Source: Escherichia coli (GTDB lineage Bacteria; Pseudomonadota; Gammaproteobacteria; Enterobacterales; Enterobacteriaceae). Taken from it: a stretch of 64,000 bases of DNA. This document shows positions 9,104 to 50,786 of this stretch, piece after piece; within the stretch, counting starts at the first letter, position 1; every line of letters starts with the position of its first letter. The DNA lies in assembly GCF_003334335.1 (NCBI RefSeq), contig NZ_QOWQ01000013.1. One strand, written 5' to 3'. The notes under the pieces were generated by a model, which saw nothing but the letters and a program-made list of their open reading frames with translations, was not told the DNA's origin and searched no databases. The position numbers and the translations under genes are program-made.

Positions 9104-9104
9104 G

Positions 9105-13965: not shown

Positions 13966-13982
13966 TCGGCGTTACCACCGTC

Positions 13983-14017
13983 AAAAAAAATGGCGCTTTT
14001 TAGCGCCGTTTTTTTTT
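13983..14017. terminator. bidirectional terminator between arcA and creD
   Basis: A8-ggcgc-ttttta-gcgcc-T9 hairpin flanked by A and T runs. Confidence 0.6.
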
Positions 14018-14022
14018 CAACC

Positions 14023-15375: not shown

Positions 15376-15432
15376 AGTCTTCTCCTTTGCAATGGCAGCA
15401 GGATACGAAGGCTATGTGGGAAGAATTTGAAG

Positions 15433-16857: not shown

Positions 16858-17546
16858 TACAGGCCCCTCAGGCTATATCCCATGCCGCGATGAGTATTAA
16901 TCGGTGAAAGATCGGGGTTGATGGCGCGCAGCTTGGCACGCAACGTTTTAATGTGGGTATCAACGGTGCGATCGTAGGTGTCCTGCGCATCTTCCCACAC
17001 GCTATCCATTAGTTGCTGGCGGGACCAGACGCGGCCTGGCGACTTGAGTAACGTCTTCAGCAATAAAAACTCATACCGCGTCAGCGTTAATGGCGTGTCA
17101 AACCAGCTGATCTGCGCCGCGGGTTCATTCAATTCAAAATGACCAATACGGATGACGGGAGACGGCGACGAGAACTTCTTCACCCGACGCAGTAAGGTGC
17201 GCACCCTGGCGCACACTTCGCGGGGTGAAAACGGTTTAGCCACATAGTCGTCAGCGCCAATTTCCAGCCCAAGCAGGCGATCGACCTCTTCACTTCGGGC
17301 CGTCAGGAACAGTACAGGTAACGCCGGATGGAGCGCCAGTAACTGGCGGCATAATTCAAAGCCGCTGATATCAGGCAAACCAACATCGAGAATCATGACG
17401 TCGGGAGCCTGCTGGCGAGCTTTATCCAGCACCGGCAAGCCTCGCTCAAAGACCTCGACGGCAAAACCTTCCTGCTGCAACATGTAGACCAGCGTGTCGG
17501 CTATCCCTTGCTCATCTTCCACTAACCAGACCGTTTCCCGTTGCAT
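16857..17546 (-). CDS. creB: response regulator CreB
   Basis: 229-aa OmpR-family ORF MQRETVWLVEDEQGIADTL... Confidence 0.95.
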   Translation of the reverse strand: MQRETVWLVEDEQGIADTLVYMLQQEGFAVEVFERGLPVLDKARQQAPDVMILDVGLPDISGFELCRQLLALHPALPVLFLTARSEEVDRLLGLEIGADDYVAKPFSPREVCARVRTLLRRVKKFSSPSPVIRIGHFELNEPAAQISWFDTPLTLTRYEFLLLKTLLKSPGRVWSRQQLMDSVWEDAQDTYDRTVDTHIKTLRAKLRAINPDLSPINTHRGMGYSLRGL

Positions 17547-17558
17547 AAATCGCCTCTG

Positions 17559-18032
17559 TTATTGCCGCCACGGCATGACAGGAACCGCGCTAATCGCGTT
17601 TTTCGGCGAACCTTCTACAACTTTGTCGGAGTAAGCCAGATAAGCGAGCGCGTTGCGTTTGGCGTCATAAAAGCGCACGACCTGTAACGACTTAAAGACC
17701 AGGGACGTGCGTTTTTTGAATACTACCTCGCCCTGAGCTTTGCCGTTTTTAATACGATCCGACAGTTCAATCGGCCCGACTTGCTGACAAGAAATAGCCG
17801 CATCGGAGGTATCTTCCGCCAGACCCAATCCCCCTTTAATACCACCTGTTTTCGCCCGGCTCACATAACAGGTGACATTTTTCACATCGGGATCGTCAAA
17901 GGCTTCCACAACAATTTTGTGATCCGGGCCGATCATTTTAAATACGGTGTCGACCGAACCAATCTCTTCTGCATGAGCCAATGGCCCCAGCATTATCAGG
18001 CTTAAAGACAGGATCAAATGCTTGTATTTCAT
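17559..18032 (-). CDS. creA: CreA family periplasmic protein
   Basis: 157-aa ORF with signal peptide; synteny. Confidence 0.9.
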
Positions 18033-18242
18033 ATTGTTACCATTTTTATCTATTACACGAGCAATTAGTTCGTCACGGTAAATAACATATTGATTAAGAA
18101 CAAAATCTCAATACTTTTATTTCCGTCAAGACCTAAAACATACTCTACTAAGAAAAAAACACTGAATGCTAAAACAGCAAAAAATGCTATTATCCAATTA
18201 CCTGATGTCAGGTGCTCGTTGTTGAAAGGATGAGGATATTTT

Positions 18243-19112
18243 ATGGATCAGGCCGGCATTATTCGCGACCTTTTAATCTGGCTGGAAGGTCATCTGGATC
18301 AGCCCCTGTCGCTCGACAATGTAGCGGCGAAAGCAGGTTATTCCAAGTGGCACTTACAGAGAATGTTTAAAGATGTCACTGGCCATGCTATTGGCGCGTA
18401 TATTCGTGCTCGTCGTTTGTCGAAATCGGCGGTCGCACTACGCCTGACTGCGCGTCCGATTCTGGACATCGCGCTGCAATACCGCTTCGACTCTCAACAG
18501 ACATTTACCCGCGCATTCAAGAAGCAGTTTGCCCAGACTCCTGCACTTTACCGCCGTTCTCCTGAATGGAGCGCCTTTGGTATTCGCCCGCCGCTGCGTC
18601 TGGGTGAATTCACTATGCCAGAGCATAAATTTGTCACCCTGGAAGATACGCCGCTGATTGGTGTTACCCAGAGCTACTCCTGTTCGCTGGAGCAAATCTC
18701 TGATTTCCGCCATGAAATGCGTTATCAGTTCTGGCACGATTTTCTCGGCAACGCGCCGACCATTCCGCCAGTGCTCTACGGCCTGAATGAAACGCGTCCG
18801 AGTCAGGATAAAGACGACGAACAAGAAGTATTCTATACCACCGCGTTAGCCCAGGATCAGGCAGATGGCTATGTACTGACGGGGCATCCGGTGATGCTGC
18901 AGGGCGGCGAATATGTGATGTTTACCTATGAAGGTCTGGGAACCGGCGTGCAGGAGTTTATCCTGACGGTATACGGAACGTGCATGCCAATGCTCAATCT
19001 GACGCGCCGTAAAGGTCAGGATATTGAGCGATACTACCCGGCAGAAGATGCCAAAGCGGGAGATCGCCCAATTAATCTGCGCTGTGAACTGCTGATTCCG
19101 ATCCGTCGTTAA
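18243..19112 (+). CDS. rob: AraC/XylS-family transcriptional regulator Rob
   Basis: 289-aa ORF MDQAGIIRDLLIWLEGHLDQPLSLDNVAAKAGYSKWHLQRMFKDVTGH. Confidence 0.95.
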   Translation: MDQAGIIRDLLIWLEGHLDQPLSLDNVAAKAGYSKWHLQRMFKDVTGHAIGAYIRARRLSKSAVALRLTARPILDIALQYRFDSQQTFTRAFKKQFAQTPALYRRSPEWSAFGIRPPLRLGEFTMPEHKFVTLEDTPLIGVTQSYSCSLEQISDFRHEMRYQFWHDFLGNAPTIPPVLYGLNETRPSQDKDDEQEVFYTTALAQDQADGYVLTGHPVMLQGGEYVMFTYEGLGTGVQEFILTVYGTCMPMLNLTRRKGQDIERYYPAEDAKAGDRPINLRCELLIPIRR

Positions 19113-19756
19113 CGCTGCAACTCATCTAATGCAGGGGCGTCCAGATGCGAGATGTCCCCTGCGGTTTCAACAACCCAGCCAGACGCCAGCCACAGGCTTT
19201 CCTGATAATCCACGCGCGAAATAGAACAGTTACGCAGACGTAAGCGGCGCTCTGCCCATGCTGGTAATCCGAGAATCGTACTCACCAGACATCCCAGTGC
19301 AATACCATGGCTCACCAGCAGCGGTCGGCTTCCCTGCGGTAAGTCCCGGCAAGATTCCAGTGCCGCATTGACGCGATCGCTGAGCTCCTGCATTGACTCG
19401 CCTTCAGGAATACGCCCGTCAACGGTGCCATTGACCAGCTGCCGACGCCAGTTCTCTTCTTCTTCGGTCAGAGAATCGATATGTCTTTTTTCCAGCACAC
19501 CCATGTCTAATTCACGCAGGCGAGAATCAAAGATGATGTCACAGCCGCAGGCCTGGGCGATGATTTCCGCCGTACGCCGGGTGCGTCCTAAATCGCTACT
19601 GATAATATGCGTAATGCCAAGCTCTTTGGCACGGGTTGCCACCTGCATCGCCTGTTGCTCACCTTTGGCGGTCAGCGGGCTGTCAGACTGGCCCTGAATA
19701 CGTCGCTCGGCGTTCCACTGCGTTTCACCGTGGCGGACTAGGTATACCTGTAACAT
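19109..19756 (-). CDS. gpmB: phosphoglycerate mutase family protein GpmB
   Basis: 215-aa ORF MLQVYLVRHGETQWNAERRIQGQSDSPL (RHG histidine phosphatase motif). Confidence 0.95.
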   Translation of the reverse strand: MLQVYLVRHGETQWNAERRIQGQSDSPLTAKGEQQAMQVATRAKELGITHIISSDLGRTRRTAEIIAQACGCDIIFDSRLRELDMGVLEKRHIDSLTEEEENWRRQLVNGTVDGRIPEGESMQELSDRVNAALESCRDLPQGSRPLLVSHGIALGCLVSTILGLPAWAERRLRLRNCSISRVDYQESLWLASGWVVETAGDISHLDAPALDELQR

Positions 19757-19795
19757 GCTTTTTTTCCGTATACTGCTGTAACGTTAATTTTCTGA

Positions 19796-20320
<525 letters not shown>

Positions 20321-29435: not shown

Positions 29436-30452
29436 ATGTCCACATTACGCCTGCTCATCTCTGACTCTTACGACCCGTGGTTTAACCTGGCGGTGGAGGA
29501 GTGTATTTTTCGCCAGATGCCCGCCACGCAGCGCGTTCTGTTTCTCTGGCGCAATGCCGACACGGTAGTGATTGGTCGCGCGCAGAACCCGTGGAAAGAG
29601 TGTAATACCCGGCGGATGGAAGAAGATAACGTCCGCCTGGCGCGGCGCAGTAGCGGTGGCGGCGCGGTGTTCCACGATCTCGGCAATACCTGTTTTACCT
29701 TTATGGCTGGCAAGCCGGAGTACGATAAAACCATCTCCACGTCGATTGTGCTCAATGCGCTGAACGCGCTTGGCGTCAGCGCCGAAGCGTCCGGACGTAA
29801 CGATCTGGTGGTGAAAACCGTCGAAGGCGACCGCAAAGTCTCAGGCTCGGCCTATCGCGAAACCAAAGATCGTGGCTTCCACCACGGCACTTTGCTGCTC
29901 AATGCCGACCTTAGCCGCCTGGCAAACTATCTCAATCCGGATAAAAAGAAACTGGCGGCGAAAGGCATTACGTCGGTACGTTCCCGCGTGACCAACCTCA
30001 CCGAGCTGTTGCCGGGGATCACCCATGAGCAGGTTTGCGAGGCCATAACCGAGGCCTTTTTCGCTCATTATGGCGAGCGTGTAGAAGCGGAAATCATCTC
30101 CCCGGACAAAACGCCAGACTTGCCGAACTTCGCCGAAACCTTTGCCCGCCAGAGTAGCTGGGAATGGAACTTCGGTCAGGCTCCGGCATTCTCGCATCTG
30201 CTGGATGAACGCTTTACCTGGGGCGGCGTGGAACTGCATTTCGACGTTGAAAAAGGCCATATCACCCGCGCCCAGGTGTTTACCGATAGCCTCAACCCCG
30301 CGCCGCTGGAAGCCCTCGCCGGACGACTGCAAGGCTGCCTGTACCGCGCAGATATGCTGCAACAAGAGTGCGAAGCGCTGTTGGTTGACTTCCCGGAACA
30401 GGAAAAAGAGCTACGGGAGTTGTCGACGTGGATAGCGGGGGCGGTGCGGTAA
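29436..30452 (+). CDS. lplA: lipoate-protein ligase A
   Basis: 338-aa [58 protein letters not shown]. Confidence 0.95.
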
Positions 30453-30483
30453 CTCGCTGATTAAAATATCCAAGGAAGGAAAT

Positions 30484-30747
30484 ATGATCGATCTGGAGAA
30501 CCAGGAACGGGAGATTATCAATTTAATGTTCAGCCAGGGTATATCCTGGCTAGCCGCCGTGCGTATCAGGCATAAATTATCGCTTGCTGAAGTAAGTAAA
30601 ATGTTAGGTATCTCGATTAATTCTCTAAAACAGATCGAAAAGACGGAACGGCTTAGCTCAAACATCAAAAGCAAAATGGCAGAAATTTATGGTTGTCCAT
30701 CAGAGTTGCTGATATGCCCTTCCTGGATGACGGCTGAACATAAATGA
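30484..30747 (+). CDS. hypothetical small XRE-family helix-turn-helix protein (87 aa)
   Basis: ORF with HTH-like segment KLSLAEVSKMLGISINSLKQIE; AT-rich; occupies the position where I recall yjjJ in K-12; no recognised named homolog. Confidence 0.45.
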   Translation: MIDLENQEREIINLMFSQGISWLAAVRIRHKLSLAEVSKMLGISINSLKQIEKTERLSSNIKSKMAEIYGCPSELLICPSWMTAEHK

Positions 30748-30845
30748 ATAGATTCGTGAATAGATACTTGAATGGATTTTATTTTCTATCCATATGAAAA
30801 ATAATAGTAAATCTATAAATCAGTTGCTATTGATGAATAGATACT

Positions 30846-30876
30846 AAAAAGCCGGAGCAGTCTCCCACTCCGGCTT
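30846..30876 (-). terminator. deo operon (deoD) rho-independent terminator
   Basis: minus-strand hairpin agccggag...ctccggct followed by TTTTT downstream of deoD stop. Confidence 0.6.
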
Positions 30877-30907
30877 CACACGACAATCGCCTTTCAGCGA
30901 AACACAA

Positions 30908-31627
30908 TTACTCTTTATCGCCCAGCAGAACGGATTCCAGTGCGATTTTGATCATGTCGTTGAAGGTGGTCTGACGCTCAGCGGCAGTGGTCTGCTCGTG
31001 AGTGCGGATGTGGTCAGACACGGTGCAGATGGTCAGGGCTTTCGCGCCAAATTCTGCAGCGACGCCGTAGATACCAGCCGCTTCCATTTCCACGCCGAGG
31101 ATGCCGTATTTTTCCATCACGTCGAACATTTCGCCGTCCGGAGAGTAGAACAGGTCAGCGGAGAACAGGTTACCCACGCGAGCATCAACGCCCAGTGCTT
31201 TAGCCGCGTCTACCGCGTTACGCACCATGTCAAAGTCAGCGATAGCGGCAAAGTCATGGTCTTTAAAACGGATGCGGTTAACTTTGGAATCGGTGCAGGC
31301 ACCCATACCGATAACGACGTCGCGTAGTTTTACGTGCGGCAGAACTGCGCCACAGGAACCCACGCGGATAATTTTCTTCACGCCGAAATCGGTGATCAGT
31401 TCTTTGGTGTAGATGGAGCAGGACGGGATACCCATACCGTGACCCATTACGGAAATTTTGCGGCCTTTGTAAGTACCGGTGAAGCCCAGCATACCGCGAA
31501 CGTTGTTCACTTCACGGGCATCTTCAAGGAAAGTTTCAGCAATATACTTCGCACGCAGCGGGTCGCCTGGCATCAAAACTACGTCAGCGAAATCGCCCAT
31601 TTCTGCATTAATGTGTGGGGTAGCCAT
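30908..31627 (-). CDS. deoD: purine nucleoside phosphorylase DeoD
   Basis: ORF 30908..31684 trimmed to [33 protein letters not shown] (239 aa). Confidence 0.95.
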
Positions 31628-31683
31628 TGTTTTATCCTTTTTGTGACATAACAAAGGCGGAGTCAACGCTCCGCCCAAATCCA

Positions 31684-32928
<1,245 letters not shown>

Positions 32929-32958
32929 TCAAATTTAAATGATCAGATCAGTATACCG

Positions 32959-34281
32959 TTATTCGCTGATACGGCGATAGACAGTTGGTGTGCTTTCCGG
33001 TGCTTTATCGGCAAGTTTAATTGCCGCTTTCACCGCTTTCGCCGCTTCCTGCCAGCTGTTTTCGTCTTTCGCGTGGATAACCGCCAGCGGACGCTGACCG
33101 TCTACCTGGTCGCCCAAACGCGCCATATCAGTAAAGCCGACGCTGTAATCGATGGTGTCAGATGCCTGACGACGACCGCCGCCCATTGCAACCACTGCCA
33201 TCCCCAGCGCGCGGGTATCCATTTCACTGACAAAACCTTCGGTATCAGCATAGACTGCTTTCGTCAGCATCGCTGTCGGCAGATACTTCGCGTAGTTCTC
33301 AACGAAGTCGGTCGGGCCTTTTTGTGCCGCTACCATACGACCAAAGACTTCTGCCGCTTTACCGTTGTCCAGCACCGCCTGCAATTTCGCGCGCGCTTCG
33401 GCGTCATCTTTCGCCAGTTTGCCGGAGATCAGCATCTCCACACACAGCGCCATCGTGACATCAAACAGACGCGGGTTACGATATTCACCCGTCAGGAACT
33501 GCACCGCTTCACGAACTTCAACCGCGTTACCGGCACTGGAGGCCAGCACCTGATTCATATCGGTGAGCAGCGCGGTGGTGCGCACGCCAGCGCCGTTAGC
33601 CACGCCAACAATCGCTTCAGCAAGGGCTTCAGAGAGTTCGTAGGTCGGCATAAATGCACCGCTACCCACTTTCACGTCCATCACCAGCGCATCCAGACCT
33701 TCCGCCAGTTTCTTCGCCAGGATCGAGGCAGTGATCAGCGGGATGGAGTCCACGGTTGCGGTAATATCACGGGTCGCGTAGAAACGTTTATCCGCCGGAG
33801 CCAGTGAGCTGGTCTGACCGATAATCGCCACGCCGACGTCTTTAATAATTTCGCGGAAACGGTTGTCATCCGGGAAAATGTCGAAGCCAGGGATGGATTC
33901 CAGTTTGTCGAGCGTACCGCCAGTATGACCGAGGCCGCGACCGGAGATCATCGGAATATAGCCGCCGCAGGCAGCGACCATCGGCCCCAACATCAGCGAA
34001 GTGACGTCGCCGACGCCACCAGTGGAATGTTTATCAACAATCGGGCCATTCAGATGCAGGCTTTTCCAGTCGAGAACGGTTCCTGAATCTCGCATCGCCA
34101 TGGTCAGCGAGACACGCTCAGGCATTGTCATATCGTGGAAGAAAATGGTCATCGCGAGGGCGGCAATCTGCCCTTCGGAGATAGTGTTGTCGCGAATACC
34201 GTTGATAAAGAAACGAATTTCTTCATCGCTCAGCGCATGACCATCACGTTTTTTACGAATAATTTCTTGTGCGAGAAACAA
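32959..34281 (-). CDS. deoA: thymidine phosphorylase
   Basis: 440-aa [51 protein letters not shown]. Confidence 0.95.
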
Positions 34282-34311
34282 GGTAACCTCCCGTGGAAAA
34301 GAGTATGAGGC

Positions 34312-34398
34312 GGCTTTTGCCGGATGCGTCTACGCCTTATCCGGCCTACGGGTAGATACGTCTCGTAGGCCTGATAAGCGCAGCGCATCAGGCGTAAA
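34312..34398. repeat. REP palindromic repeats between deoC and deoA
   Basis: gccggatgcgtctacgccttatccggcctac and taggcctgataagcgcagcgcatcaggc. Confidence 0.6.
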
Positions 34399-34407
34399 GC
34401 ATCTTAC

Positions 34408-35187
34408 TTAGTAGCTGCTGGCGCTCTTACCGTCGCCGTGGCCCAGCGCTTTCAACAGGCTTGCCAGCAGGCTGGAAGCGCCAAAGCGGTAGTGACGCGC
34501 ATCTGCCCAGTCAGCACCGAACAGTTCATCTGCAATCGCGAGATATTTCTGCGCATCTTCCGCAGTACGCACGCCGCCCGCTGGTTTGAAACCAACGGTT
34601 TTTTCTACGCCCATATCACGGATCACTTCCATCATGATGCGCGCGCTTTCCGGCGTCGCGTTCACAGCCACTTTACCGGTAGAGGTTTTGATGAAGTCCG
34701 CACCCGCTTTGATGGAGATTTCAGACGCTTTACGGATCAGCGCTTCGTCTTTTAGTTCGCCGGTTTCGATGATCACTTTCAGCAGTACATTCGCTGCCGC
34801 GCAAGCCTCTTTACAGGCTTTCACCAGGTCAAAACCAACCTGCTCGTTACCCGCCATCAGCGCGCGGTACGGGAACACCACGTCAACTTCATCGGCACCG
34901 TAGGCGATTGCCGCACGGGTTTCTGCCAGCGCGATTTCGATGTCGTCGTTACCGTGTGGGAAGTTGGTTACCGTAGCAATACGGATTTCCGGGGTGCCCT
35001 GCTCTTTCAGTGTTTTGCGAGCAATCGGGATAAAGCGAGGATAGATACAGATAGCGGCGGTATTGCCGACCGGGGTTTTGGCCTGATGACACAGAGCAAT
35101 TACTTTCTCGTCGGTGTCGTCGTCATTCAGGGTGGTCAGGTCCATTAATTTCAGTGCACGCAGGCTGCTTGCTTTCAGATCAGTCAT
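34408..35187 (-). CDS. deoC: deoxyribose-phosphate aldolase
   Basis: ORF 34408..35211 trimmed to [50 protein letters not shown] (259 aa). Confidence 0.95.
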
Positions 35188-35231
35188 TTCATTCTCCTGG
35201 CTTGTCGCCAATAAAATTCACCTTGCGAGTT

Positions 35232-35247
35232 TGTTAGTATTCTAACA
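35232..35247. promoter_or_regulatory. DeoR operator O2 (deoP2)
   Basis: TGTTAGTATTCTAACA near-palindrome about 45 bp upstream of deoC start; exactly 599 bp from the perfect palindrome at 35831, matching the published O1-O2 spacing. Confidence 0.7.
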
Positions 35248-35444
35248 TCTACTCCGCAACACACTTCGATATACATCACAATTAAGGAAATCTACTTACA
35301 AGTTTGCATCACTGTAATGCGATCTGGTTCAAATAATTCACTTTCAAATGAATGCGTCAGTGGTGGCAAACGCATCAGGATCAAAGTGAACATCACGAAA
35401 CTTCTTACAATGGCGCATCACCTTCGGCATAAAAGGAAAAGAAG

Positions 35445-36995
35445 ATGCCCACTTCTCATGAAAATGCACTGCAACAACGTTGCCAGCAAATTGTCACCAG
35501 CCCAGTGCTTAGCCCGGAGCAGAAGCGCCATTTTCTGGCACTGGAAGCAGAAAACAATCTGCCTTATCCGCAGCTGCCTGCCGAGGCCCGCCGCGCGCTG
35601 GATGAGGGTGTAATCTGCGATATGTTTGAAGGTCATGCGCCGTACAAACCGCGCTATGTCTTACCCGATTACGCCCGTTTTCTGGCGAACGGTTCCGAAT
35701 GGCTGGAGCTGGAAGGCGCGAAAGATCTTGATGACGCACTCTCTCTGCTGACCATTCTTTACCACCACGTACCGTCGGTCACATCGATGCCGGTCTACCT
35801 GGGGCAACTGGATGCGTTGTTGCAACCGTATGTTAGAATTCTAACACAAGACGAGATCGATGTTCGAATAAAACGTTTCTGGCGTTACCTCGACAGAACC
35901 CTGCCAGACGCCTTTATGCACGCCAATATCGGCCCGTCTGATTCGCCCATTACCCGCGCGATCTTACGTGCAGACGCAGAGTTGAAGCAGGTTTCACCGA
36001 ACCTGACCTTTATCTACGATCCTGAAATCACCCCTGATGACCTGCTGCTGGAAGTGGCGAAGAACATCTGTGAATGTAGCAAACCGCACATCGCCAACGG
36101 TCCGGTGCATGATAAAATTTTCACAAAAGGGGGCTACGGGATTGTGAGCTGTTACAACTCACTGCCGCTGGCGGGTGGTGGCAGCACGCTGGTACGCCTT
36201 AACCTGAAAGCCATTGCCGAGCGCAGCGAATCGCTGGATGACTTCTTTACGCGCACTCTACCGCACTACTGCCAGCAGCAGATCGCCATCATCGATGCGC
36301 GGTGTGAATTCCTCTATCAACAATCACACTTCTTTGAGAATAGCTTCCTGGTGAAAGAAGGGCTGATTAACCCTGAACGTTTTGTGCCAATGTTTGGCAT
36401 GTATGGGCTGGCGGAAGCGGTTAACTTGCTGTGTGAGAAAGAAGGGATTGCCGCACGTTACGGTAAAGAAGCCGCCGCAAATGAAGTGGGTTATCGCATC
36501 AGCGCGCAACTGGCGGAGTTTGTCGCCAATACCCCCGTGAAATATGGCTGGCAAAAACGCGCCATGTTACACGCACAGTCGGGGATCAGTTCCGATATCG
36601 GCACCACGCCGGGCGCGCGTTTGCCGTATGGCGATGAGCCAGATCCGATCACCCATCTGCAAACTGTCGCCCCGCATCATGCTTATTATTATTCCGGCAT
36701 CAGCGACATTCTGACCCTCGACGAAACCATCAAACGTAACCCGCAGGCACTGGTACAGCTTTGCCTCGGTGCCTTTAAAGCCGGAATGCGTGAATTTACC
36801 GCCAATGTCAGCGGTAACGATCTGGTTCGCGTTACCGGTTATATGGTGCGTTTGTCGGATTTAGAAAAATATCGCGCCGAAGGTTCACGCACCAACACCA
36901 CCTGGCTGGGCGAAGAAGCCGCACGCAACACTCGTATTCTGGAACGCCAGCCGCGCGTGATAAGCCATGAACAGCAGATGCGCTTTAGTCAGTAA
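35445..36995 (+). CDS. yjjI: glycyl-radical-enzyme-like protein YjjI (DUF3029), substrate unknown
   Basis: 516-aa ORF with C-terminal glycyl radical motif RVTGY; adjacent activase gene. Confidence 0.9.
35831..35846. promoter_or_regulatory. DeoR operator O1 (deoP1)
   Basis: perfect 16-bp palindrome TGTTAGAATTCTAACA; lies inside the annotated yjjI reading frame (encodes ...YVRILTQ...). Confidence 0.7.
36110..36125. promoter_or_regulatory. candidate DeoR distal operator OE
   Basis: TGATAAAATTTTCACA matches DeoR consensus at 12 of 16 positions, 279 bp beyond O1 (published OE is about 278 bp upstream of O1). Confidence 0.4.
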
Positions 36996-37830
36996 GATTA
37001 TCCCCTTCTCCTGCGTTGACGGGCCAGGCAGTCGTCTGGCTCTGTTTTTGCAGGGCTGCAATCTGCGCTGCAAAAACTGTCACAATCCGTGGACGATGGG
37101 ACGCTGCAATGATTGCGGAGAGTGCGTGCCACAGTGTCCGCATCAGGCGTTGCAGATTGTTGACGGCAAAGTGATGTGGAACGCTGTGGTCTGCGAGCAA
37201 TGTGATACCTGCCTGAAGATGTGTCCGCAACATGCCACGCCGATGGCGCAATCCATGAGCGTGGACGAAGTGCTTAGCCATGTCCGCAAAGCAGTGCTGT
37301 TTATCGAAGGGGTAACGGTAAGCGGCGGTGAAGCCACGACCCAGCTGCCGTTTGTGGTGGCGCTGTTTACTGCTATCAAAAACGATCCGCAACTGCACCA
37401 TCTCACCTGTCTGGTGGACAGTAACGGTATGTTGAGCGAAACCGGCTGGGAAAAATTGCTTCCGGTGTGCGACGGCGCAATGCTCGATCTCAAAGCGTGG
37501 GGGAGCGAATGTCATCAGCAATTAACCGGACGCGATAATCAGCAGATTAAGCGCAGCATCTGTTTGCTGGCAGAGCGTGGCAAGCTGGCAGAACTGCGTT
37601 TGCTGGTAATCCCTGGCCAGGTGGATTATTTGCAACACATCGAAGAACTGGCGGCGTTTATCAAGGGACTTGGCGATGTTCCGGTACGCCTGAACGCGTT
37701 TCATGCCCACGGCGTGTATGGCGAGGCGCAAAGCTGGGCGAGCGCCACGCCGGAAGACGTTGAGCCGTTGGCTGATGCATTAAAGGTGCGCGGGGTGAGC
37801 CGGTTGATATTTCCGGCGCTCTATTTGTGA
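36967..37830 (+). CDS. yjjW: glycyl-radical enzyme activating protein YjjW (radical SAM)
   Basis: 287-aa ORF with CNLRCKNC radical-SAM CX3CX2C motif and extra ferredoxin-like Cys clusters ([22 protein letters not shown]); overlaps yjjI 3-prime end by 29 bp. Confidence 0.9.
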
Positions 37831-39128
<1,298 letters not shown>

Positions 39129-39132
<4 letters not shown>

Positions 39133-40238
39133 GCCAGATCCTCATTGTTAAATGTCGGGTCGTTCGCCTGCGGAGCATCGCTCACTTCGGCAACCAGCGT
39201 ATCGTTGGCGACTGGCGCAGGCGGAATAACGATCGATTCCGGCGTCACCACTGGCACCAGATGGCGGGTAAGCGGCGCTTTTTCAGTTAATAGCTTGCCA
39301 ACCGTGGCGAGGAAATATCGCCCGCATAAACGCCCAAGTTTATAGTCTTCACGCAGCGCCGGAATCCGACTGCCAAGCGCGATACTATGTAATGGCTTCG
39401 GTGGATAAATTTCGAATATCCGCAGCTTGCCCGGTGGTTTCTCAATAAATTGCTGGATGTCACGATAGCTGGTTTCATGATGCTGCACCAGATTGACCAG
39501 CGGCTGCAGGCTACTGTCACCCAGCCAGCGTTCCATGCGTTTGAACCACTGCGGCGTGTAGTACATTTGTGACGGCACAGTGCGAATGACGACCAACGTT
39601 TTAGCGCCCTGCCTTGCCGCCTCTTTAACCGGAATCGCATCACTGATCCCGCCATCCAGGTAGTTAATGCCTTCCAGCGACACTCCGCTACGATAAAAGC
39701 CAGGTATCGCACTGGAGGCGCGAATCACATCCAGCCAGTTTTGTTTGGTTGGTAAAAAGTAATTCGGCGCATAGTCATCCTGACGACAGGCGCACATATA
39801 AAACGATTTGCCGCTGTCAAACAACCGCGCGGCGGTATCCATTTGCAACGGCATCTGACTTGCGGTGGCCTCCACCAGCCAGTCGAGATCGATAAGATTT
39901 CCTCCACGCACAAAGCGCAATGGATCGAAAAATTCGCGTTTTGTGGTATAGCGCATGATGACTTTGCGCGCGTAACCGGGCTGATTGCAGATATACGCCG
40001 AGAGGTTCTGCGCCCCGGCAGATGTGCCGAGATAAAGATCGAAAGGATTAAACTGCGCGCGCATAAACTCATCCAGCACGCCAGCCGTGAAAATTCCACG
40101 CTGTCCGCCGCCTTCGCACACCAGAGCTATTCGTCCAGGCTGGAACGGCCTTAGCGACAACGGCGCAATATTACCAAGCGTTACAGGTATTCGCTGCCCC
40201 ACCTCTGCCTTCCTGTTTTTGTTGTGAAAGAATGACAA
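39129..40238 (-). CDS. yjjU: patatin-like phospholipase family protein YjjU
   Basis: ORF with GGGQRG oxyanion motif and GTSAG lipase motif; true start may be a downstream GTG (K-12 product is about 357 aa). Confidence 0.85.
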
Positions 40239-40323
40239 AGTAACGCAATTTATTATTCGCTAAAACCGCAAAAGCCAGTCCGCTGGACTGGCTTTGGATA
40301 AAATTTTCTTAATGGTCTGAAAT

Positions 40324-40485
40324 CTAGGGTCGTTTTCGGCCCATGAACAAACTCACCAGGAACAGAATAATCCCGACGACAAAGACAATTTTAGCTGCGC
40401 CTGCAGCGGTACCGGCCAGACCACCAAACCCAAGTGCGGCGGCGATTAACGCGATAACCAGAAATATGATGCCCCAACGAAACAT
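40324..40485 (-). CDS. ytjA: small membrane protein YtjA (DUF1328)
   Basis: ORF trimmed to [53 protein letters not shown] (53 aa). Confidence 0.7.
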
Positions 40486-40611
40486 AAGCGTCTCCTTTAC
40501 CATAGTTAATGTCACCGCTTGATATGAGCGTGAAAATCACTCAATGCGATATTTTTAGTGTGGTGCACATCGCGCCTCCCGACAAAGTTCGGGAGGACGA
40601 ATTACGACGAA

Positions 40612-41217
40612 TTACTTAGTTTTCAGATCATTTTTAACGCTTTTCACACCATCTACCGCTTTGGCGATACTTTCAGCACGGTCGCTCTGTGCCTGGGAAT
40701 CGACGGTACCGGAGAGCTGAACCACGCCGTCGGTGGTTTCAACTTTCACATGACGGGAAGGGACGATATCGTCCGCCAGCAGTTTGGCTTTGATTTCACT
40801 GGTGGTGGCGGTGTCACCCGCGTAGCCCTTCACCGAGCCTTCTTTAGCGTCGCGAACGTGCAGTTTGTCGCTGACAGAGGTCACCCCTTCAACGCCTTTC
40901 GCCACTTTCACTGCCTCTTCGGCCTGGGCCTGGCTTTCAACGAAACCGCTCAGGGTCACGACTTTTTGATCGGTTTTTACAGAGATATCGGTGCTCTTGA
41001 TGTTGTCATGATCCACCAGGGCCGCCTTCACTTTCGCGGTGATGGCGCTGTCATCCATGAAATTACCGACTTTATTCATAGAGCTATCGACTTTTTGCCC
41101 TGCGCTTTCATTGGTAGTCTGTGCGTTGTTTTCCGCGTAGGCAGAGCCGGTCGCGACGGCAGAGGTCAACATTACAGCCAGCAGAGTTTTCGAAATCTTC
41201 AGTCTTGTCATAGTCAT
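40612..41217 (-). CDS. osmY: osmotically inducible periplasmic protein OsmY (two BON domains)
   Basis: ORF 40612..41295 trimmed to [28 protein letters not shown] (201 aa). Confidence 0.95.
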
Positions 41218-41609
41218 CGATTTATTCCTGTATGTTTGCTCGTAATTTGAGCCTGGCAACACGAGGTTGCATTGCTGAATAGGGAGAGACTTCACCCTCT
41301 ACAGAAGTCAATGGTCGCCATCACAAAAGCGATGGGTGATGAATAACGACCATTACAGCCTCTGAATCAGTTATTAATATCGGTAGAATGACAATCGACG
41401 GCTTTAGATACTGATATCTACGCATTGAACGGTATTTAACGCCGTCAGAAATGTCATTACTTTGTTAAATATAGATCACAATTTTGAAACCGCTCGGGAT
41501 ATCAGCGAAAACATAAGCAAAAGTGAATGTTTTAAGAACATTCCGTAAGCGGCTAATAAGGAAGGGAAATTGACAGGGCGCAGCGGCTACCGCGCCCTGG
41601 AGGCAAGAA

Positions 41610-43199
41610 TTAATGCTCGCGGGTCTGGTGGAACTGAACGTCCGGATAACGTTCCTGCGCCAGGCGCAGGTTGACCATGCTGGTAGCGATGTAAGCGAGG
41701 TTATCGCCGCCATCAAGCGCCAGTTGGCTTTCGTTCTTACGCTTGAACTCTTCGAATTTCTTCGCGTCCGCACATTCTACCCAGCGGGCAGTGGCAACGT
41801 TGACTGATTCATATACTGCTTCAACGTTGTATTCGCTCTTCAGGCGCGATACCACCACATCAAACTGCAGCACACCAACAGCACCAACGATCAAATCGTT
41901 GTTGGAGATCGGACGGAACACCTGCACCGCGCCCTCTTCGGAAAGCTGTACCAGCCCTTTGAGCAGCTGTTTTTGCTTCAGCGGATCTTTCAGGCGGATA
42001 CGACGGAACAGTTCTGGTGCGAAGTTCGGAATACCGGTGAACTTCATCATCTCACCCTGGGTAAAGGTGTCGCCGATCTGAATAGTGCCGTGGTTGTGCA
42101 GGCCGAGGATATCGCCCGGATACGCTTCTTCAACGTGCGAACGGTCGCCCGCCATAAAGGTCAGCGCGTCGGAGATAACCACATCTTTCGCAGTACGCAC
42201 CTGGCGCAGCTTCATGCCTTTTTCATATTTACCGGATACTACGCGCATAAACGCCACGCGGTCGCGGTGTTTCGGGTCCATGTTGGCCTGAATTTTAAAT
42301 ACGAAGCCGGTAAATTTGTCTTCGCTCGCCTCTACGGTACGGGTATCAGTCTGACGCGGCATCGGCGCAGGGGCCCACTCCACCAGGCCATCCAGCATAT
42401 GATCAACGCCGAAGTTACCCAGCGCAGTACCGAAGAATACCGGAGTGATTTCGCCCGCAAGGAACAATTCTTTGTCGAACTCGTTAGACGCGCCTTTCAC
42501 CAGTTCCAGTTCGTCACGTAGCTGCTGTGCCAGATCTTCACCAACCGCAGCGTCGAGATCCGGGTTATTCAGCCCTTTAACAATACGGACTTCCTGAATC
42601 GTGTGGCCTTTACCGCTCTGATAGAGATAGGTTTCGTCTTTATAAAGGTGGTAAACGCCTTTAAACAGCTTGCCGCAGCCAATCGGCCAGGTGATCGGTG
42701 CGCAGCCGATTTTCAGCTCGTTCTCAACTTCATCGAGCAGTTCCATCGGGTCGCGGATATCACGGTCAAGTTTGTTCATAAAGGTGAGGATCGGCGTGTC
42801 GCGCAGACGGGTAACTTCCATCAGCTTACGGGTACGATCTTCAACACCTTTTGCAGCGTCGATAACCATCAGGCAGCAGTCCACCGCCGTCAGGGTACGA
42901 TAGGTATCTTCCGAGAAGTCTTCGTGCCCCGGGGTGTCGAGCAGGTTAACCAGGCAATCGTGATACGGAAACTGCATCACAGACGTAGTAATGGAGATCC
43001 CACGCTGCTTTTCCATCTCCATCCAGTCCGACTTAGCGTGCTGGTTGGAACCACGGCCTTTTACTGTACCGGCGGTCTGAATGGCCTGTCCGAACAGCAG
43101 CACCTTCTCGGTGATGGTAGTCTTACCGGCATCCGGGTGAGAAATAATGGCAAAAGTGCGGCGCTTCGCCACCTCTTGCAAATAAGGAGACAACGTCAT
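41610..43199 (-). CDS. prfC: peptide chain release factor 3
   Basis: ORF trimmed to [28 protein letters not shown] (GTPase G1 motif; 529 aa). Confidence 0.95.
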
Positions 43200-43289
43200 A
43201 ATTCTTTCTTCTTGAGTAAGCGGCATCGCGCCGCGCTTGTTGAAAACGAAAAATTGCGGCTATTTTACCCATCAACGGGGGGGAGGCAA

Positions 43290-43967
43290 TCAGTGTTTAC
43301 ACAGGAGCTGCTCCAGTTCGTGCAACGAAGAAACGGTCCAGGTGGGCGCGATGCCTTCTGGTTGCTCGCGATGGTGCGCATTCAGCCAGCAGGTCGCAAG
43401 CCCGGCGTTGATGCCACCGAGAATATCGGACTCGGCAGTGTCGCCAACCATCAGCACGCGTGAACGGTCAGGATTGCCCGCCTGTTCCAGCGCATAATCG
43501 AAAATTTTCTTATTCGGTTTGGCAACGCCAACTTCTTCGGAAATCACCAGCAAATCGAAGTAATCACGCAGGCCCGTGCGTTCCAGACGCACTTGCTGCA
43601 AGGCGCTAAAGCCGTTGGTGATGATGCCGATTTTGGCGTTGCCACGAATGGCGTTAAGCAGAGAAACCGCGCCCGGCAGCGGCGTGCAGATTTCCGCCAT
43701 CGCATTAATAAAGGCATCGTTAAGCAAGCCTGCTTCAACTTTCAGCCGTTCGGCCCAGCTCTCAAAACGCCCGTGCTGAAGCTGTAATGAAGTGATCGCG
43801 CCGTTTTGATAATCCACCCACAGTGGCTTGTTAACGGCCTGATAGTCCTGAAAATCTTCAGCGGTAAAGGTGACGCTGTAATCAAGAAACATCCGCTGCA
43901 GGCCGGTGAATGAGTCAAAGGTAAACAGCGTTTCATCGGCATCAAAGAAAATCCAGTCCCACTTCAT
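43290..43967 (-). CDS. yjjG: HAD-family pyrimidine 5-prime-nucleotidase YjjG
   Basis: 225-aa [18 protein letters not shown] (HAD DxD motif). Confidence 0.9.
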
Positions 43968-43981
43968 TATTCCACCTTGTC

Positions 43982-44428
43982 TTACATACTGATTGGCAAC
44001 GCCATGATGATGGCGTCTTCGCGACCGTCCGTGGTGGGGTAGTAATTGCGGCGAATCGTCGCCTCGTTAAAGCCTAAACTTTCGTACAGGGCAATGGCGG
44101 CAGCATTTGAGGCACGGACTTCCAGCCATAGTGTCGCCACGCCGCGTTTTTCCAGTTCGTCGATCAGATGTTCCAGCAGCACCCTTCCCAATCCCTGACG
44201 CTGATAGTCAGGATCGACCGCAATATTGAACAATGTAGCTTCATCCAGCACCACTTGCGTAATCGCAAACGCCGCCATTTTGCCGTTTTGCGTTAACTGA
44301 AAGTTGAGATAACGCTCGCCCTGGTTGCTGGCAAAGGTTTTTTCACTCCACGGAAAGGCGTGGGCGCGTTGTTCAATGTGGTAAGCCGCCGGTAAATCAG
44401 TCGTTTCGAGGGAAGAAATCGTGTTCAT
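43982..44428 (-). CDS. rimI: ribosomal protein S18 alanine N-acetyltransferase RimI
   Basis: 148-aa [34 protein letters not shown]. Confidence 0.95.
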
Positions 44429-44810
44429 ATGTGCAAATTTGTTGCCATAACGCGGCGCGTGCCGTTGGGTTTGCCCGTAATTCGGTGAGCGCCGGTGATG
44501 CCACCTGAGCGCCTTCCAGTGATAGCGGTTCGTCAGTACCCAACCGCCAGCTGTTGCAGCGACTGCCTTGCGGCAGCATCGCGATTTTTTCTGGCGTCAG
44601 TTGCAGCACTTGATCGGGGCTGACGGTTAATGCGCGCAGAACATCGCTCACTAAAGGATCGGTCAGGGCGGGAAGATCGTTTGCCACCATCACCAGACGG
44701 ACGTGTGCCGGGATCGCAATGGCAATCTCCCCCTGCAACGCGCCAGGGCGACGCAGCGACCACTGGGTAATGCCCAGTTGCTGTAACTGCCAGTCTCGTC
44801 GGGATGTCAT
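44397..44810 (-). CDS. holD: DNA polymerase III psi subunit
   Basis: 137-aa ORF MTSRRDWQLQQLGITQWSLRRPGALQGEIAIAIP; overlaps rimI start. Confidence 0.95.
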   Translation of the reverse strand: MTSRRDWQLQQLGITQWSLRRPGALQGEIAIAIPAHVRLVMVANDLPALTDPLVSDVLRALTVSPDQVLQLTPEKIAMLPQGSRCNSWRLGTDEPLSLEGAQVASPALTELRANPTARAALWQQICTYEHDFFPRND

Positions 44811-44912
44811 AGCGAATCGCTCCTGTTGTCAGGGGCGCAAATATAGCAAATTCGTCGATACCGCGCCAACATATGGCTATAATCGCCGCCAGTATCAATT
44901 GAGGAGCATTCC

Positions 44913-45944
44913 ATGTCTGCATTTACCCCGGCAAGTGAAGTCTTGCTGCGTCACAGTGATGATTTCGAACAAAGCCGTATTCTGTTTGCCGGAGACTTAC
45001 AGGATGACCTGCCCGCGCGTTTAGATACCGCGGCCAGCCGTGCTCATACCCAGCAATTTCACCACTGGCAGGTGTTAAGCCGCCAGATGGGGGATAACGC
45101 CCGTTTTAGTCTGGTCGCCACGGCGGATGACGTCGCAGATTGCGATACGCTGATTTACTACTGGCCGAAGAACAAACCGGAAGCCCAGTTCCAGTTGATG
45201 AATTTACTTTCTCTGCTGCCGGTGGGCACTGATATTTTTGTCGTTGGCGAGAACCGCAGCGGCGTGCGCAGCGCCGAGCAGATGCTGGCTGATTATGCGC
45301 CGTTGAATAAAGTCGACAGCGCCCGTCGCTGTGGCCTCTATTTTGGTCGTCTGGAAAAACAGCCGGTATTTGATGCCGATAAATTCTGGGGCGAATACAG
45401 CGTCGATGGCCTGACGGTCAAAACGCTGCCTGGCGTGTTTAGCCGCGACGGTCTGGATGTCGGTAGCCAGTTGCTACTCTCGACGTTAACCCCGCACACG
45501 AAAGGTAAAGTGCTGGATGTCGGCTGTGGCGCGGGTGTGCTTTCAGTTGCCTTTGCGCGCCATTCACCGAAAATTCGTCTCACCTTGTGCGATGTCTCTG
45601 CCCCGGCGGTAGAAGCCAGCCGTGCGACGCTTGCGGCCAACGGTGTTGAAGGTGAAGTCTTTGCCAGCAACGTCTTTTCCGAGGTGAAAGGTCGTTTTGA
45701 TATGATCATCTCCAACCCGCCGTTCCACGATGGGATGCAAACCAGCCTGGATGCGGCGCAAACGCTGATTCGCGGCGCGGTGCGTCATCTTAATAGCGGC
45801 GGCGAGCTGCGAATTGTAGCGAACGCCTTCCTGCCTTATCCGGACGTGCTGGATGAGACATTTGGCTTCCACGAAGTGATCGCGCAAACAGGGCGCTTCA
45901 AGGTGTATCGCGCCATTATGACCCGCCAGGCGAAGAAAGGTTAA
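44913..45944 (+). CDS. rsmC: 16S rRNA (guanine1207-N2)-methyltransferase RsmC
   Basis: 343-aa [41 protein letters not shown]; SAM-binding [12 protein letters not shown]. Confidence 0.95.
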
Positions 45945-45959
45945 TTATCTCGCCGAATA

Positions 45960-46135
<176 letters not shown>

Positions 46136-46175
46136 ACATTTTTCCAGCAATTACACCTCCGGCGATAATTAACTA

Positions 46176-46203
46176 TTGACGAAAAGCTGAAAACCACTAG
46201 AAT
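46176..46203 (+). promoter_or_regulatory. tRNA-Leu promoter (sigma70)
   Basis: TTGACG -35 and TAGAAT -10 with 16-bp spacer followed by GC-rich discriminator gcgcctcc, about 40 bp upstream of the tRNA. Confidence 0.6.
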
Positions 46204-46244
46204 GCGCCTCCGTGGTAGCAATTCTTTTTAAGAATTGATGGTAT

Positions 46245-46331
46245 GCGAAGGTGGCGGAATTGGTAGACGCGCTAGCTTCAGGTGTTAGTGTCCTTACGGA
46301 CGTGGGGGTTCAAGTCCCCCCCCTCGCACCA
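46245..46331 (+). tRNA. leuQ: tRNA-Leu (anticodon CAG)
   Basis: 87-nt GCGAAGGTGGCGGAATTGGTAGACGCGCTAGCTTCAGGTG...CCTCGCACCA; long variable arm; genomically encoded CCA; single copy. Confidence 0.95.
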
Positions 46332-46369
46332 ATTATCTTTACTTCCTTTCTTGTTTCTTCCCTGTTTTG

Positions 46370-46606
46370 TCATCCCTGATTCAAATTCATTAGCATCAGC
46401 ATGATGCCAGCACTAAGCGTCAGGCACGATGGTAGCAAAACGTAATGCCGTAACTGTTTGTGATACAGCATCACCGGCGTCAATACTAATCCCATAAGAA
46501 TGACAATCCGCCATTGATCCGGCGATAAATCCGCATACATCAGCCCTGCAATCAGCAATCCTGGCAGCAACACTCCCCAGCCACTGCCCAGCGTACGTTG
46601 CAACAT
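46370..46606 (-). CDS. yjjZ: small membrane protein YjjZ
   Basis: ORF 46370..46717 trimmed to internal Met giving MLQRTLGSGWGVLLPGLLIAGLMYADLSPDQW (78 aa). Confidence 0.7.
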   Translation of the reverse strand: MLQRTLGSGWGVLLPGLLIAGLMYADLSPDQWRIVILMGLVLTPVMLYHKQLRHYVLLPSCLTLSAGIMLMLMNLNQG

Positions 46607-46623
46607 GGTTTCATCTCTTTCAT

Positions 46624-46733
46624 TGATAATGATAACCAATATCATATGATAATTTTTATCATTTGCAAGCCAGAGAAATCCCTTGCTATCGGATAAACCT
46701 ATCGCTAGGATTAGCAATCATTATCATTTAGAT
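46624..46733. promoter_or_regulatory. Fur boxes in the divergent yjjZ-fhuF promoter region
   Basis: TGATAATGATAACCAATATCATATGATAATTTTTATCATT and GATTAGCAATCATTATCATTTAGAT match the GATAATGATAATCATTATC consensus. Confidence 0.55.
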
Positions 46734-46746
46734 TACTATCCCGATT

Positions 46747-47535
46747 ATGGCCTATCGTTCCGCACCGCTCTATGAAGATGTTATCTGGCGAACGCATCTC
46801 CAGCCACAGGATGCTGGGCTTGCACAAGCCGTACGTGCGACGATCGCCAAACATCGTGAACATTTGCTCGAGTTTATCCGCCTGGATGAACCCGCTCCGC
46901 TTAACGCCATGACGCTGGCGCAATGGTCATCACCGAATGCGCTAAGTTCTCTACTCGCGGTCTATTCCGATCATATCTATCGCAACCAACCAACGATGAT
47001 CCGCGAGAACAAACCGCTGATCTCACTATGGGCACAATGGTATATCGGCCTGATGGTGCCACCATTAATGCTGGCGCTACTGACGCAGGAAAAGGCATTA
47101 GATGTGTCGCCGGAACATTTCCACGTTGAGTTTCACGAAACCGGCCGTGCCGCCTGTTTCTGGGTCGATGTGTGTGAAGATAAAAACGCAACACCACATT
47201 CGCCGCAGCAGCGAATGGAAACGTTAATCAGCCAGGCGCTGGTTCCGGTTGTGCAGGCACTAGAAGCGACCGGAGAGATCAACGGCAAACTTATCTGGAG
47301 TAATACCGGTTATTTGATCAACTGGTATCTCACTGAGATGAAGCAACTGCTCGGCGAGGCGACGGTTGAATCGCTGCGCCATGCCCTCTTTTTTGAGAAA
47401 ACGCTCACGAACGGTGAAGATAATCCACTCTGGCGTACCGTGGTACTGCGCGACGGCCTGCTGGTGCGCCGCACTTGCTGCCAGCGTTATCGCTTACCGG
47501 ATGTGCAGCAATGTGGCGATTGTACGCTGAAATGA
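46747..47535 (+). CDS. fhuF: ferric-siderophore reductase FhuF (2Fe-2S)
   Basis: 262-aa ORF ending in C-C-x10-C-x2-C cluster motif (RRTCCQRYRLPDVQQCGDC). Confidence 0.95.
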   Translation: MAYRSAPLYEDVIWRTHLQPQDAGLAQAVRATIAKHREHLLEFIRLDEPAPLNAMTLAQWSSPNALSSLLAVYSDHIYRNQPTMIRENKPLISLWAQWYIGLMVPPLMLALLTQEKALDVSPEHFHVEFHETGRAACFWVDVCEDKNATPHSPQQRMETLISQALVPVVQALEATGEINGKLIWSNTGYLINWYLTEMKQLLGEATVESLRHALFFEKTLTNGEDNPLWRTVVLRDGLLVRRTCCQRYRLPDVQQCGDCTLK

Positions 47536-47572
47536 AAGCACTGCCGGGGAAGTAAACCCGGCATAATGCGGA

Positions 47573-48250
47573 TTAATAGGGATGCAACACATTACTTGCT
47601 TCGCAATGCCGCATACATAACAGAATATCTGCGGCCTCCAACAACCCTGCATCAGAACTGACGCCCAGTTTCGACATCACATTAAATTTATGTGCACGGA
47701 TCGTTTTGATATTGCGTTTAAGCTGCTCGGCAATTTGTGTCATTGAGTAGCCACGCGACATAAAGCGCAATATTTCTCTCTCCGTCGGGCTTAACGTCCG
47801 GCTTTGGTTAATGTACCACTGATTGTTCAGTCGGTCGGTCGCCTGACGTACACCATTTAATGACAAAAAGAGTTCCTGATGAAAAATCTCCAGCGTTGAC
47901 GCTTTACTTAATACACCGTCCAGCGGTGATGGCGACAATGAACCAATCAGCCGAGCTTCAATATCATCATCCGCAATAACTAAACGCCGGGTACGCGGAA
48001 ACTTAATCGCCAGTTCAGTCAGGCAAGATAATCCCTCTCTGCGCTCACTTCTCATGGCAGAAAAAGAAAAAATAACCGCCGCAAATGAGATCCGCGACAT
48101 GGCATCCTGAAATGACTCCTGACTGGTATAGGTATGGAGCTTATAAGGGTTACCCGCAAACTTTCTGAATAAACTCTCAATACCGATACTGCTCATGACG
48201 CATTTTTCTATGAGTGCGACATTTCTCTTCTTAATTCGGCTGTGTTCCAT
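47573..48250 (-). CDS. bglJ: LuxR-family transcriptional regulator BglJ
   Basis: 225-aa ORF with C-terminal LuxR HTH ([25 protein letters not shown]). Confidence 0.9.
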
Positions 48251-48933
48251 TCTGCGGCATCTCCATAAACAGAAGGCAAGTTAAGTTCTCTTGCACCCTG
48301 CGCGCTATTTATCCATGCATACATTTCAGCGTTGCTGTGAATTGCCAGTCGACGCATCGCACTGTTTTTTTGGGCGCTGATAGTTTTATTACTTTTCTTA
48401 AGCAACGAAGCTATCTGGTTGATGCCCCATCCTTTACCTAATAGCCGCAGTACCTTGCGCTCTGAAAGAGTGAGAATGACGGAGCGATAGCTAAAATCAT
48501 GAGTTTCAGTCATTGCCGGAGAGGTCAGCATGGCGCTGATACGCTCTGCGTGCGTATTGCCGGAACGTACGGTCTTGACCAGATTCTCAATGGGTTCAAC
48601 ATCAGACAATAACGTCGCCGTAGGGCACATGAGCAATTCTACTGCCTGGGAATACCAGGAGCGTGACACCATGAAAACCCAGTGAATTTCCCGATATTGT
48701 GAAATTAAAGAATAATAATGCTCACAAACAGAACGTGGATCTTCACTTTCACCGGCTAAATCAGCAATGACTAATCCGGAACGACGTAATTGTAATAAGG
48801 TAAGGTCCTCCGCAGAGGCGCTGGATATTATTTCATATTCAGGGAAGTGAGTCCTCATGACCTCTTTTAACCCTGCTTGCATAACAGGTATTTTACTGAT
48901 AACAATTCCATTTTTGCAGCATCCTGGCAACAT
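48208..48933 (-). CDS. yjjQ: LuxR-family transcriptional regulator YjjQ
   Basis: 241-aa ORF with LuxR HTH ([23 protein letters not shown]); overlaps bglJ start. Confidence 0.9.
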
Positions 48934-49551
48934 ATTTCCTCCACATCCACTGTCTAAAAATCATGATGGTTTATTCAGGATATTCATTCCTTAAATGTTT
49001 CCAGCAAATTAATAGATTAAGCGAATAAATTATCCTTAGCATTCACTTTCATATCAGCATACTCCTGCTGCACAACAACTCCACTGCATGTGTCAGAAGG
49101 TTAGCATCAAATGATAACCTGGTGAAATAGCCTGGAGACATTTAAAATATCTACATTAAGTTGTTAGGAATACTTAATGAAAAACAGAAATCACATTCAT
49201 TTAATTTATAATTAAATGATATCCCTTCCCGCAGAATGAAAAATCACACAACCAATATTTATTCAATGAAATCTGATGGTTTTAACTTGTTAACATTAAA
49301 AAACGTGCCCGGTTATCTATAATCCTGATTCGTAAAGGCCAAACAATAAATTCATTATAGTGATAATATTCATGTGATAGTTTGTTTGCGGCGAGAGATA
49401 ATTCGCTTTTTATCACCGAGCTTGTCCCGATAACCAGGATTAATCAGCGCAATTTTGATCTTAACCTACCGCAAAACAACCGTGCTTCATGATACAAATG
49501 GATTCTCATTATCTGAACAATACGCAGCACGTCTATGACAAAGGGCGAGTT

Positions 49552-50786
<1,235 letters not shown>

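Follow-up and report, generated by a model that had tools for sequence, protein, structure and literature searches.

CUG is the most used leucine codon in Escherichia coli. K-12 carries four genes for tRNA-Leu1 (PMC2190699). In the MG1655 RefSeq record, three tandem genes occur between rsmC and yjjZ/fhuF, arranged from the promoter outward as leuQ (b4370), leuP (b4369) and leuV (b4368) and separated by 28 and 34 nt, respectively; this is the arrangement that the initial annotation of the locus described here had given for K-12. For the K-12 operon, 'unstructured Rho-dependent terminators' have been described downstream of leuV, its tRNAs are separated and 5'-matured by RNase P without a need for RNase E, and the 3' terminator sequence is removed by PNPase and RNase II (PMC2190699). 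In Salmonella, one study includes leuV-leuP-leuQ among the tRNA operons profiled downstream under NusG depletion or Rho mutation (PMC6797219). The whole cluster is deletable, as a K-12 delta-leuVPQ strain is viable (Raval et al. 2023, eLife, PMC9981150). In general, strains that lose tRNA redundancy grow more slowly in rich media but show no effect or a benefit in poor media, and the remaining copies compensate little (PMC9981150).

The 64-kb stretch of E. coli DNA analysed here (the window) contains an orthologue of the leuQPV operon in a reduced allele form. When the whole window was scanned with ARAGORN, one tRNA gene was found, a tRNA-Leu(CAG). The features of the locus are as follows.

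44913-45944, plus strand: rsmC, gene for the 16S rRNA m2G1207 methyltransferase, upstream flank; a 343-aa ORF, the orthologous position being annotated as rsmC in K-12 and throughout the E. coli loci compared.
45946-46135, no strand assigned: REP/BIME-type repeats between rsmC and the promoter, with matches to Rfam naRNA4 (REP-derived).
46176-46211, plus strand: leuQPV-type promoter and G+C-rich discriminator GCGCCTCC, from the promoter scan and conservation.
46212-46244, plus strand: 5' leader of about 35 nt, the same as the K-12 leuQ leader, which RNase P removes in K-12, and invariant in the alignment.
46245-46331, plus strand: tRNA-Leu(CAG), sole copy, 87 nt, identified by ARAGORN and by Rfam RF00005 (48.5 bits).
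46332-46369, plus strand: 3' trailer, as the K-12 leuV trailer, and predicted Rho entry region, from composition, folding and conservation with K-12 and O157.
46370-46609, minus strand: yjjZ, gene for a DUF1435 protein, convergent; from the ORF list, with yjjZ annotated at the orthologous position in all E. coli loci compared.
46747-47535, plus strand: fhuF, gene for a ferric-siderophore reductase, downstream flank; a 262-aa ORF with orthologous annotation, which completes the conserved synteny.

The tRNA gene is identical, letter for letter, to K-12 leuQ and leuV and encodes a type II tRNA with a long variable arm; its anticodon lies at 46279-46281, and it shares with leuQ and leuV a C at tRNA position 48 (46292), while leuP has T. 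The strong, near-consensus promoter core (46176-46203) consists of the -35 element TTGACG, a 16-nt spacer and the -10 element TAGAAT, matching the sigma-70-type consensus at 10 of 12 positions in the promoter scan, and its sequence is the same in the window, K-12, O157:H7 and strain TR01 in the alignment. The Rfam naRNA4 matches within the repeats upstream cover 46023-46105 (73 bits) and 45955-45994. On the other side, the tRNA 3' end is separated from the yjjZ stop codon by 38 nt; the listed ORF at 46370-46717 includes the annotated 78-aa YjjZ, which starts with MLQRTLG. These data bear out the initial annotation, which had placed one 87-nt tRNA-Leu(CAG) between rsmC and yjjZ, with REP repeats on the rsmC side, one promoter and about 40 bp to the yjjZ stop. 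The range it gave, 46141-46369, does span promoter, leader, tRNA and trailer, and the tRNA gene proper is confined to 46245-46331.

The tRNA type, the position between rsmC and yjjZ-fhuF and the promoter motif are those of leuQPV, and the three tandem tRNAs with short unique spacers are represented by one gene. The leuQ leader, this one tRNA and the leuV trailer are contiguous, with no internal spacer, which is the structure of a one-copy allele. In a four-way alignment, the window is the same as K-12 from about 60 nt before the promoter to the end of the leuQ leader, and near-identity resumes from the tRNA body into the leuV trailer. The sole structural difference between them is a clean gap of 236 bp, equal to 87 + 28 + 87 + 34, so that two tRNAs are absent along with the two spacers; this one-copy structure is also that of O157:H7 strain 611 in the alignment. 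Thus, the window shares with K-12 its position, promoter, leader, tRNA sequence and a trailer of the same kind, with no intrinsic terminator in either, whereas it has one gene instead of three and lacks the 28-nt and 34-nt spacers and the leuP variant. Its primary transcript would be 236 nt shorter than that of K-12.

The repeat units of leuQPV are 87 bp long and recur every 115-121 bp. Short tandem direct repeats are well known to undergo deletion, whether through unequal crossing-over or through replication slippage, and a loss of 236 bp is what either recombination or slippage between the 87-bp repeats would be expected to leave. Because the repeats are identical, the deletion junction lies anywhere within the 87 nt. 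We therefore regard it as highly probable that the window carries a real, natural one-copy allele of leuQPV, made by a 236-bp direct-repeat deletion from an ancestral set of three copies. The ancestral layout in Enterobacterales is promoter, leuQ, 28 nt, leuP, 34 nt, leuV and a Rho-dependent trailer, from which the two tRNAs and both spacers would have been lost via homologous recombination or replication slippage between identical 87-bp repeats. The remaining gene retains the leuQ promoter and leader together with the leuV trailer, would presumably be transcribed, 5'-processed by RNase P and Rho-terminated as in K-12, and would yield one tRNA per transcript in place of three. The same collapse has occurred many times over in E. 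coli.

The frequency of the allele was determined in 5426 complete E. coli genomes from RefSeq. A 207-nt query, comprising 60 nt on the leader side, the tRNA and 60 nt on the trailer side, was used with a threshold of E<=1e-85, a value that is reachable by a contiguous one-copy locus only, because a 147-nt partial match gives about 1e-70. The one-copy allele was found in 425 of the 5426 genomes (7.8%), at a single place in each. Queries for the two inter-tRNA junctions were covered in 4999 genomes each, a number that apparently takes in all multi-copy genomes, and the segment spacer1-tRNA-spacer2, which corresponds to about three or more copies, is covered in 4963 (91%). Two-copy genomes therefore number about 36 of 5426, a figure obtained by subtraction that depends on the joining of BLAST pieces. 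The census accounts for 5424 genomes, with 2 unplaced, and rests on BLAST coverage and E-value criteria with separate BLAST pieces joined into one place.

When 60 genomes were drawn evenly from the 425 with one copy, 42 were O157:H7 or O157:H7-like (approximately 70%), including EDL933. The carriers comprise about 300 O157:H7 assemblies and about 120 other complete E. coli genomes, and for 307 of the 425 the identity to the 207-nt query is 99% or higher. The annotation itself places just one tRNA-Leu in the rsmC-yjjZ interval of EDL933, of strain 611 and of twelve non-O157 strains, the annotated non-O157 loci including those of U90, WB61, AR202.2, AVS0973, GF4, TUM9803, 3908, AVS0223, IPCEC48, BCE049 and ST648. 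In the Ec-050 and 2020S05-013 strain series, independent assemblies are concordant on one copy. The initial annotation had implied that a single copy is unusual and had set comparison with other strains beforehand as the test on which this might fail; it is here that it gave way, as EDL933, of the major reference lineage O157:H7, has a single copy, as do 425 of 5426 genomes overall. The one-copy locus is a known, common and recurrent polymorphism, an ordinary deletion variant.

The O157:H7 allele (EDL933, 611 and about 300 more) resembles that of the window in its leader, one tRNA and trailer, with 99.5% identity over the 207 nt, whereas it resides on another flank haplotype, with a REP region about 111 nt shorter and with SNPs both ahead of the promoter and within the trailer. 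Since the O157:H7 flanks differ from those of the window at more than 38 of 2236 sites, the window does not belong to the O157:H7 lineage. Two-copy alleles, as in O157:H7 strain TR01 and FDAARGOS_1302, occupy the same locus and have lost one repeat unit between direct repeats; unlike the window, they still have, next to leuQ, the 28-nt spacer and another tRNA, and they are rare (about 36 of 5426). TR01 is labelled O157:H7, and its RsmC is unlike that of EDL933. Its locus has two copies and is the best match to the window locus (98.7%); it is without the typical O157:H7 one-copy haplotype.

These genomes also bear on the possibility that the source strain has three (or two) copies and that its 87-bp repeats were merged by the assembler. 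Near-identical tandem repeats are a classic site of collapse, and the only one-copy representative outside E. coli, Escherichia whittamii, comes from a low-coverage short-read contig ('cov_8.77'), so that some one-copy calls could be artefacts. However, the repeats measure just 87 bp, with unique spacers of 28 and 34 nt between them, so that 150-nt reads or k-mers above 87 span them, and a broken contig would be the more likely outcome of a collapse, whereas the window is seamless over 64 kb. Moreover, the identical architecture is present in 425 complete genomes, in about 300 independent O157:H7 assemblies and in replicate assemblies of the same strains. With the same architecture in 425 complete genomes, the allele certainly exists in nature, and an assembly artefact in the window is very improbable. 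One-copy leuQPV should not automatically be taken for an assembly error.

The ancestral state was assessed by a scan of one genome per bacterial species with the motif TTGACG-N16-17-TAGAATGCGCCTCC, followed by ARAGORN on the 900 nt downstream; loci were scored when a tRNA-Leu(CAG) came after the motif and no less than 520 nt of sequence was present (n = 74). The promoter motif TTGACG-N16-TAGAAT followed by GCGCCTCC lies ahead of the tRNA-Leu(CAG) cluster in 87 loci of Enterobacterales species representatives. Three copies were found in 66 of the 74 scored loci, including those of E. albertii, Salmonella enterica subsp. arizonae, Citrobacter, Enterobacter, Klebsiella, Raoultella, Pantoea, Erwinia and Dickeya; the count for E. 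albertii is that of ARAGORN, a regex count having given two owing to a SNP in one copy. Two copies were found in seven loci (five Xenorhabdus, Erwinia persicina and one Pluralibacter MAG) and one copy in a single locus, that of Escherichia whittamii. As 66 of 74 representatives have three copies behind a common promoter, three copies are the ancestral state of the order and a single copy is a derived one.

The reverse polarity, in which one copy would be ancestral and the three copies of K-12 a derived amplification, has nothing in its favour beyond its formal possibility. Against it stand the 66 three-copy representatives with homologous spacing and the same promoter, E. albertii and Salmonella among them, the 91% of E. 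coli genomes with three copies, and the position of one-copy genomes at the tips of the flank tree described below, beside three-copy genomes. One copy as the ancestral state is ruled out by the outgroup survey and can be given practically no credence. The mechanism put forward in the initial annotation, a collapse from three copies to one through recombination between direct repeats, is upheld by the leuQ leader, the leuV trailer, the clean 236-bp gap and the ancestral three copies.

All five Xenorhabdus representatives with enough sequence have two tRNA-Leu(CAG) genes with longer spacers of 45-74 nt, and this two-copy arrangement looks like a genus-level reduced state. E. whittamii Sa2BVA5 (NZ_JACSQI010000001.1) has a single tRNA-Leu(CAG) and is colinear with window positions 38894-50533 in a single alignment with 92% identity, a value that places E. 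whittamii in a species other than that of the window. Its single copy could have arisen by yet another independent loss or could stem from the assembly, the contig title giving a coverage of about 9x. The identity between the window and E. albertii is about 92-94%.

Recurrence was examined with a flank tree built from rsmC and the trailer-yjjZ-fhuF region (2236 aligned columns) of the window, outgroups and 22 E. coli genomes, 13 with one copy and 9 with three. One-copy and three-copy genomes are intermixed throughout the tree. There are no differing sites in the 2236-nt flanks between AVS0973 (one copy) and AH65 (three copies), and none among the one-copy strains AVS0223 and IPCEC48 and the three-copy strain AR_0086; two sites distinguish AR202.2, with one copy, from CUVET16-819, with three. 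The flanking proteins of these sets bear the same RefSeq accessions. The presence of both states on identical flank haplotypes indicates that the deletion happened repeatedly. Because the spacers, once lost, cannot be regenerated except via an imported three-copy allele, the sample implies about 11 separate one-copy clades, on unrelated haplotypes. In the O157:H7 lineage the one-copy allele is fixed. The locus is a handy natural case of recurrent deletion between short tandem repeats.

The window flanks differ from those of every sampled genome at no fewer than 38 of 2236 sites, and their nearest neighbours include both one-copy and three-copy genomes; judged from these flanks, the deletion in the window may be an independent event, or it may go back to an older ancestor. 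Among the 5426 complete E. coli genomes, the best identity is 98.4% for window positions 30000-50000 and 99.5% for positions 1-20000. From these values the window chromosome looks mosaic, with the deo-osmY-prfC-rsmC-fhuF block apparently a poorly represented haplotype. IS1 ends were sought within the 64-kb window and none was found.

The mosaic structure, with its unequal best matches in the two regions, would also suit an import of the one-copy state by homologous recombination from a carrier strain in place of a deletion in this lineage. The 207 nt round the tRNA are 100% identical to those of U90, while the rsmC and yjjZ-fhuF blocks show 97.7 and 98.0% identity to U90, respectively. This identity says little, because the 207-nt segment, with its promoter and tRNA, is mostly invariant, and import is not needed where the deletion recurs de novo on identical haplotypes. 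Import is therefore rather unlikely; it is in any case a variant of the deletion reading rather than a true alternative, since the allele is real either way.

Under the deletion reading, the remaining gene keeps the 3' end of the operon. No terminator-like hairpin was found when sought after the tRNA on the plus strand. The trailer (46332-46369, 38 nt) is pyrimidine-rich (T23 C9 G3 A3), and in the fold of 46332-46431 the first 39 nt, i.e. the entire trailer, are unpaired. It is common to K-12, O157:H7 and the two-copy strain TR01 in the alignment. A hairpin-free, pyrimidine-rich trailer conserved with K-12 constitutes the sequence side of a predicted Rho termination. The initial annotation was right that no hairpin follows the tRNA; the missing terminator was rejected as a feature of the collapsed allele, as the same trailer follows K-12 leuV. 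For the same reason, any antisense read-through into yjjZ would be common to all alleles. As yjjZ ends 38 nt past the tRNA, transcripts could plausibly run antisense into the 3' end of yjjZ to some extent before being stopped by Rho. With promoter, leader and trailer intact, the remaining gene should be expressed and matured like K-12 leuQPV.

The change in dosage suggested at the outset is real as a gene count, one versus three at this locus. In O157:H7 RIMD 0509939, a one-copy strain, tRNA-end queries match only two chromosomal places, and such place counts suggest that one-copy strains would have two tRNA-Leu1 genes in total and no compensating copy. The K-12 delta-leuVPQ strain is similar in that the tRNA-Leu(CAG) gene dosage is cut at this locus, and it gives the expected direction of the phenotype; in contrast to the natural allele, which keeps one gene with its promoter, it has lost all three genes and is left with leuT only. 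By analogy with this strain, the supply of the CUG decoder is likely to be lowered, yet tolerated. The natural series of three-, two- and one-copy alleles is usable for studying the effects of tRNA gene dosage on CUG decoder supply. The discovery value of the window itself is small, as the allele is already present in public reference genomes, EDL933 included.

It is possible, though doubtful in our judgement, that the recurrent collapse to one copy is adaptive and not neutral noise. The pattern that points in this direction consists of about 11 separate flank haplotypes in a small sample, fixation in O157:H7 and the E. whittamii representative, and it would fit the benefit of tRNA redundancy loss in poor media (PMC9981150). 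If so, slow-growing or nutrient-poor lineages would have been selected to shed surplus tRNA-Leu(CAG) genes, and the locus would be a simple, irreversible dosage switch.

Several records at this locus show further peculiarities. In two three-copy strains, the middle tRNA-Leu is annotated with a length other than 87 nt, namely 88 nt in G5 (3141-3228) and 86 nt in CUVET16-819 (3141-3226); our guess is a change in the C8 run of the T-arm/acceptor region, either a sequencing error or a real, probably damaging, variant. The older of the Nissle 1917 records (NZ_CP007799.1, 5425439-5427278) has a fragment of an IS630-family transposase where rsmC is expected and a truncated fhuF pseudogene, and only two tRNA-Leu are annotated there though the BLAST match spans 240 nt; these oddities may reflect a rearrangement, or assembly or annotation problems. 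The REP region of the window contains a unit of about 56 nt that is repeated (45958-46013 and 46069-46124). The length of this region varies by strain, that of the window being 33 nt longer than that of K-12 and O157:H7 strain 611 being without about 111 nt.
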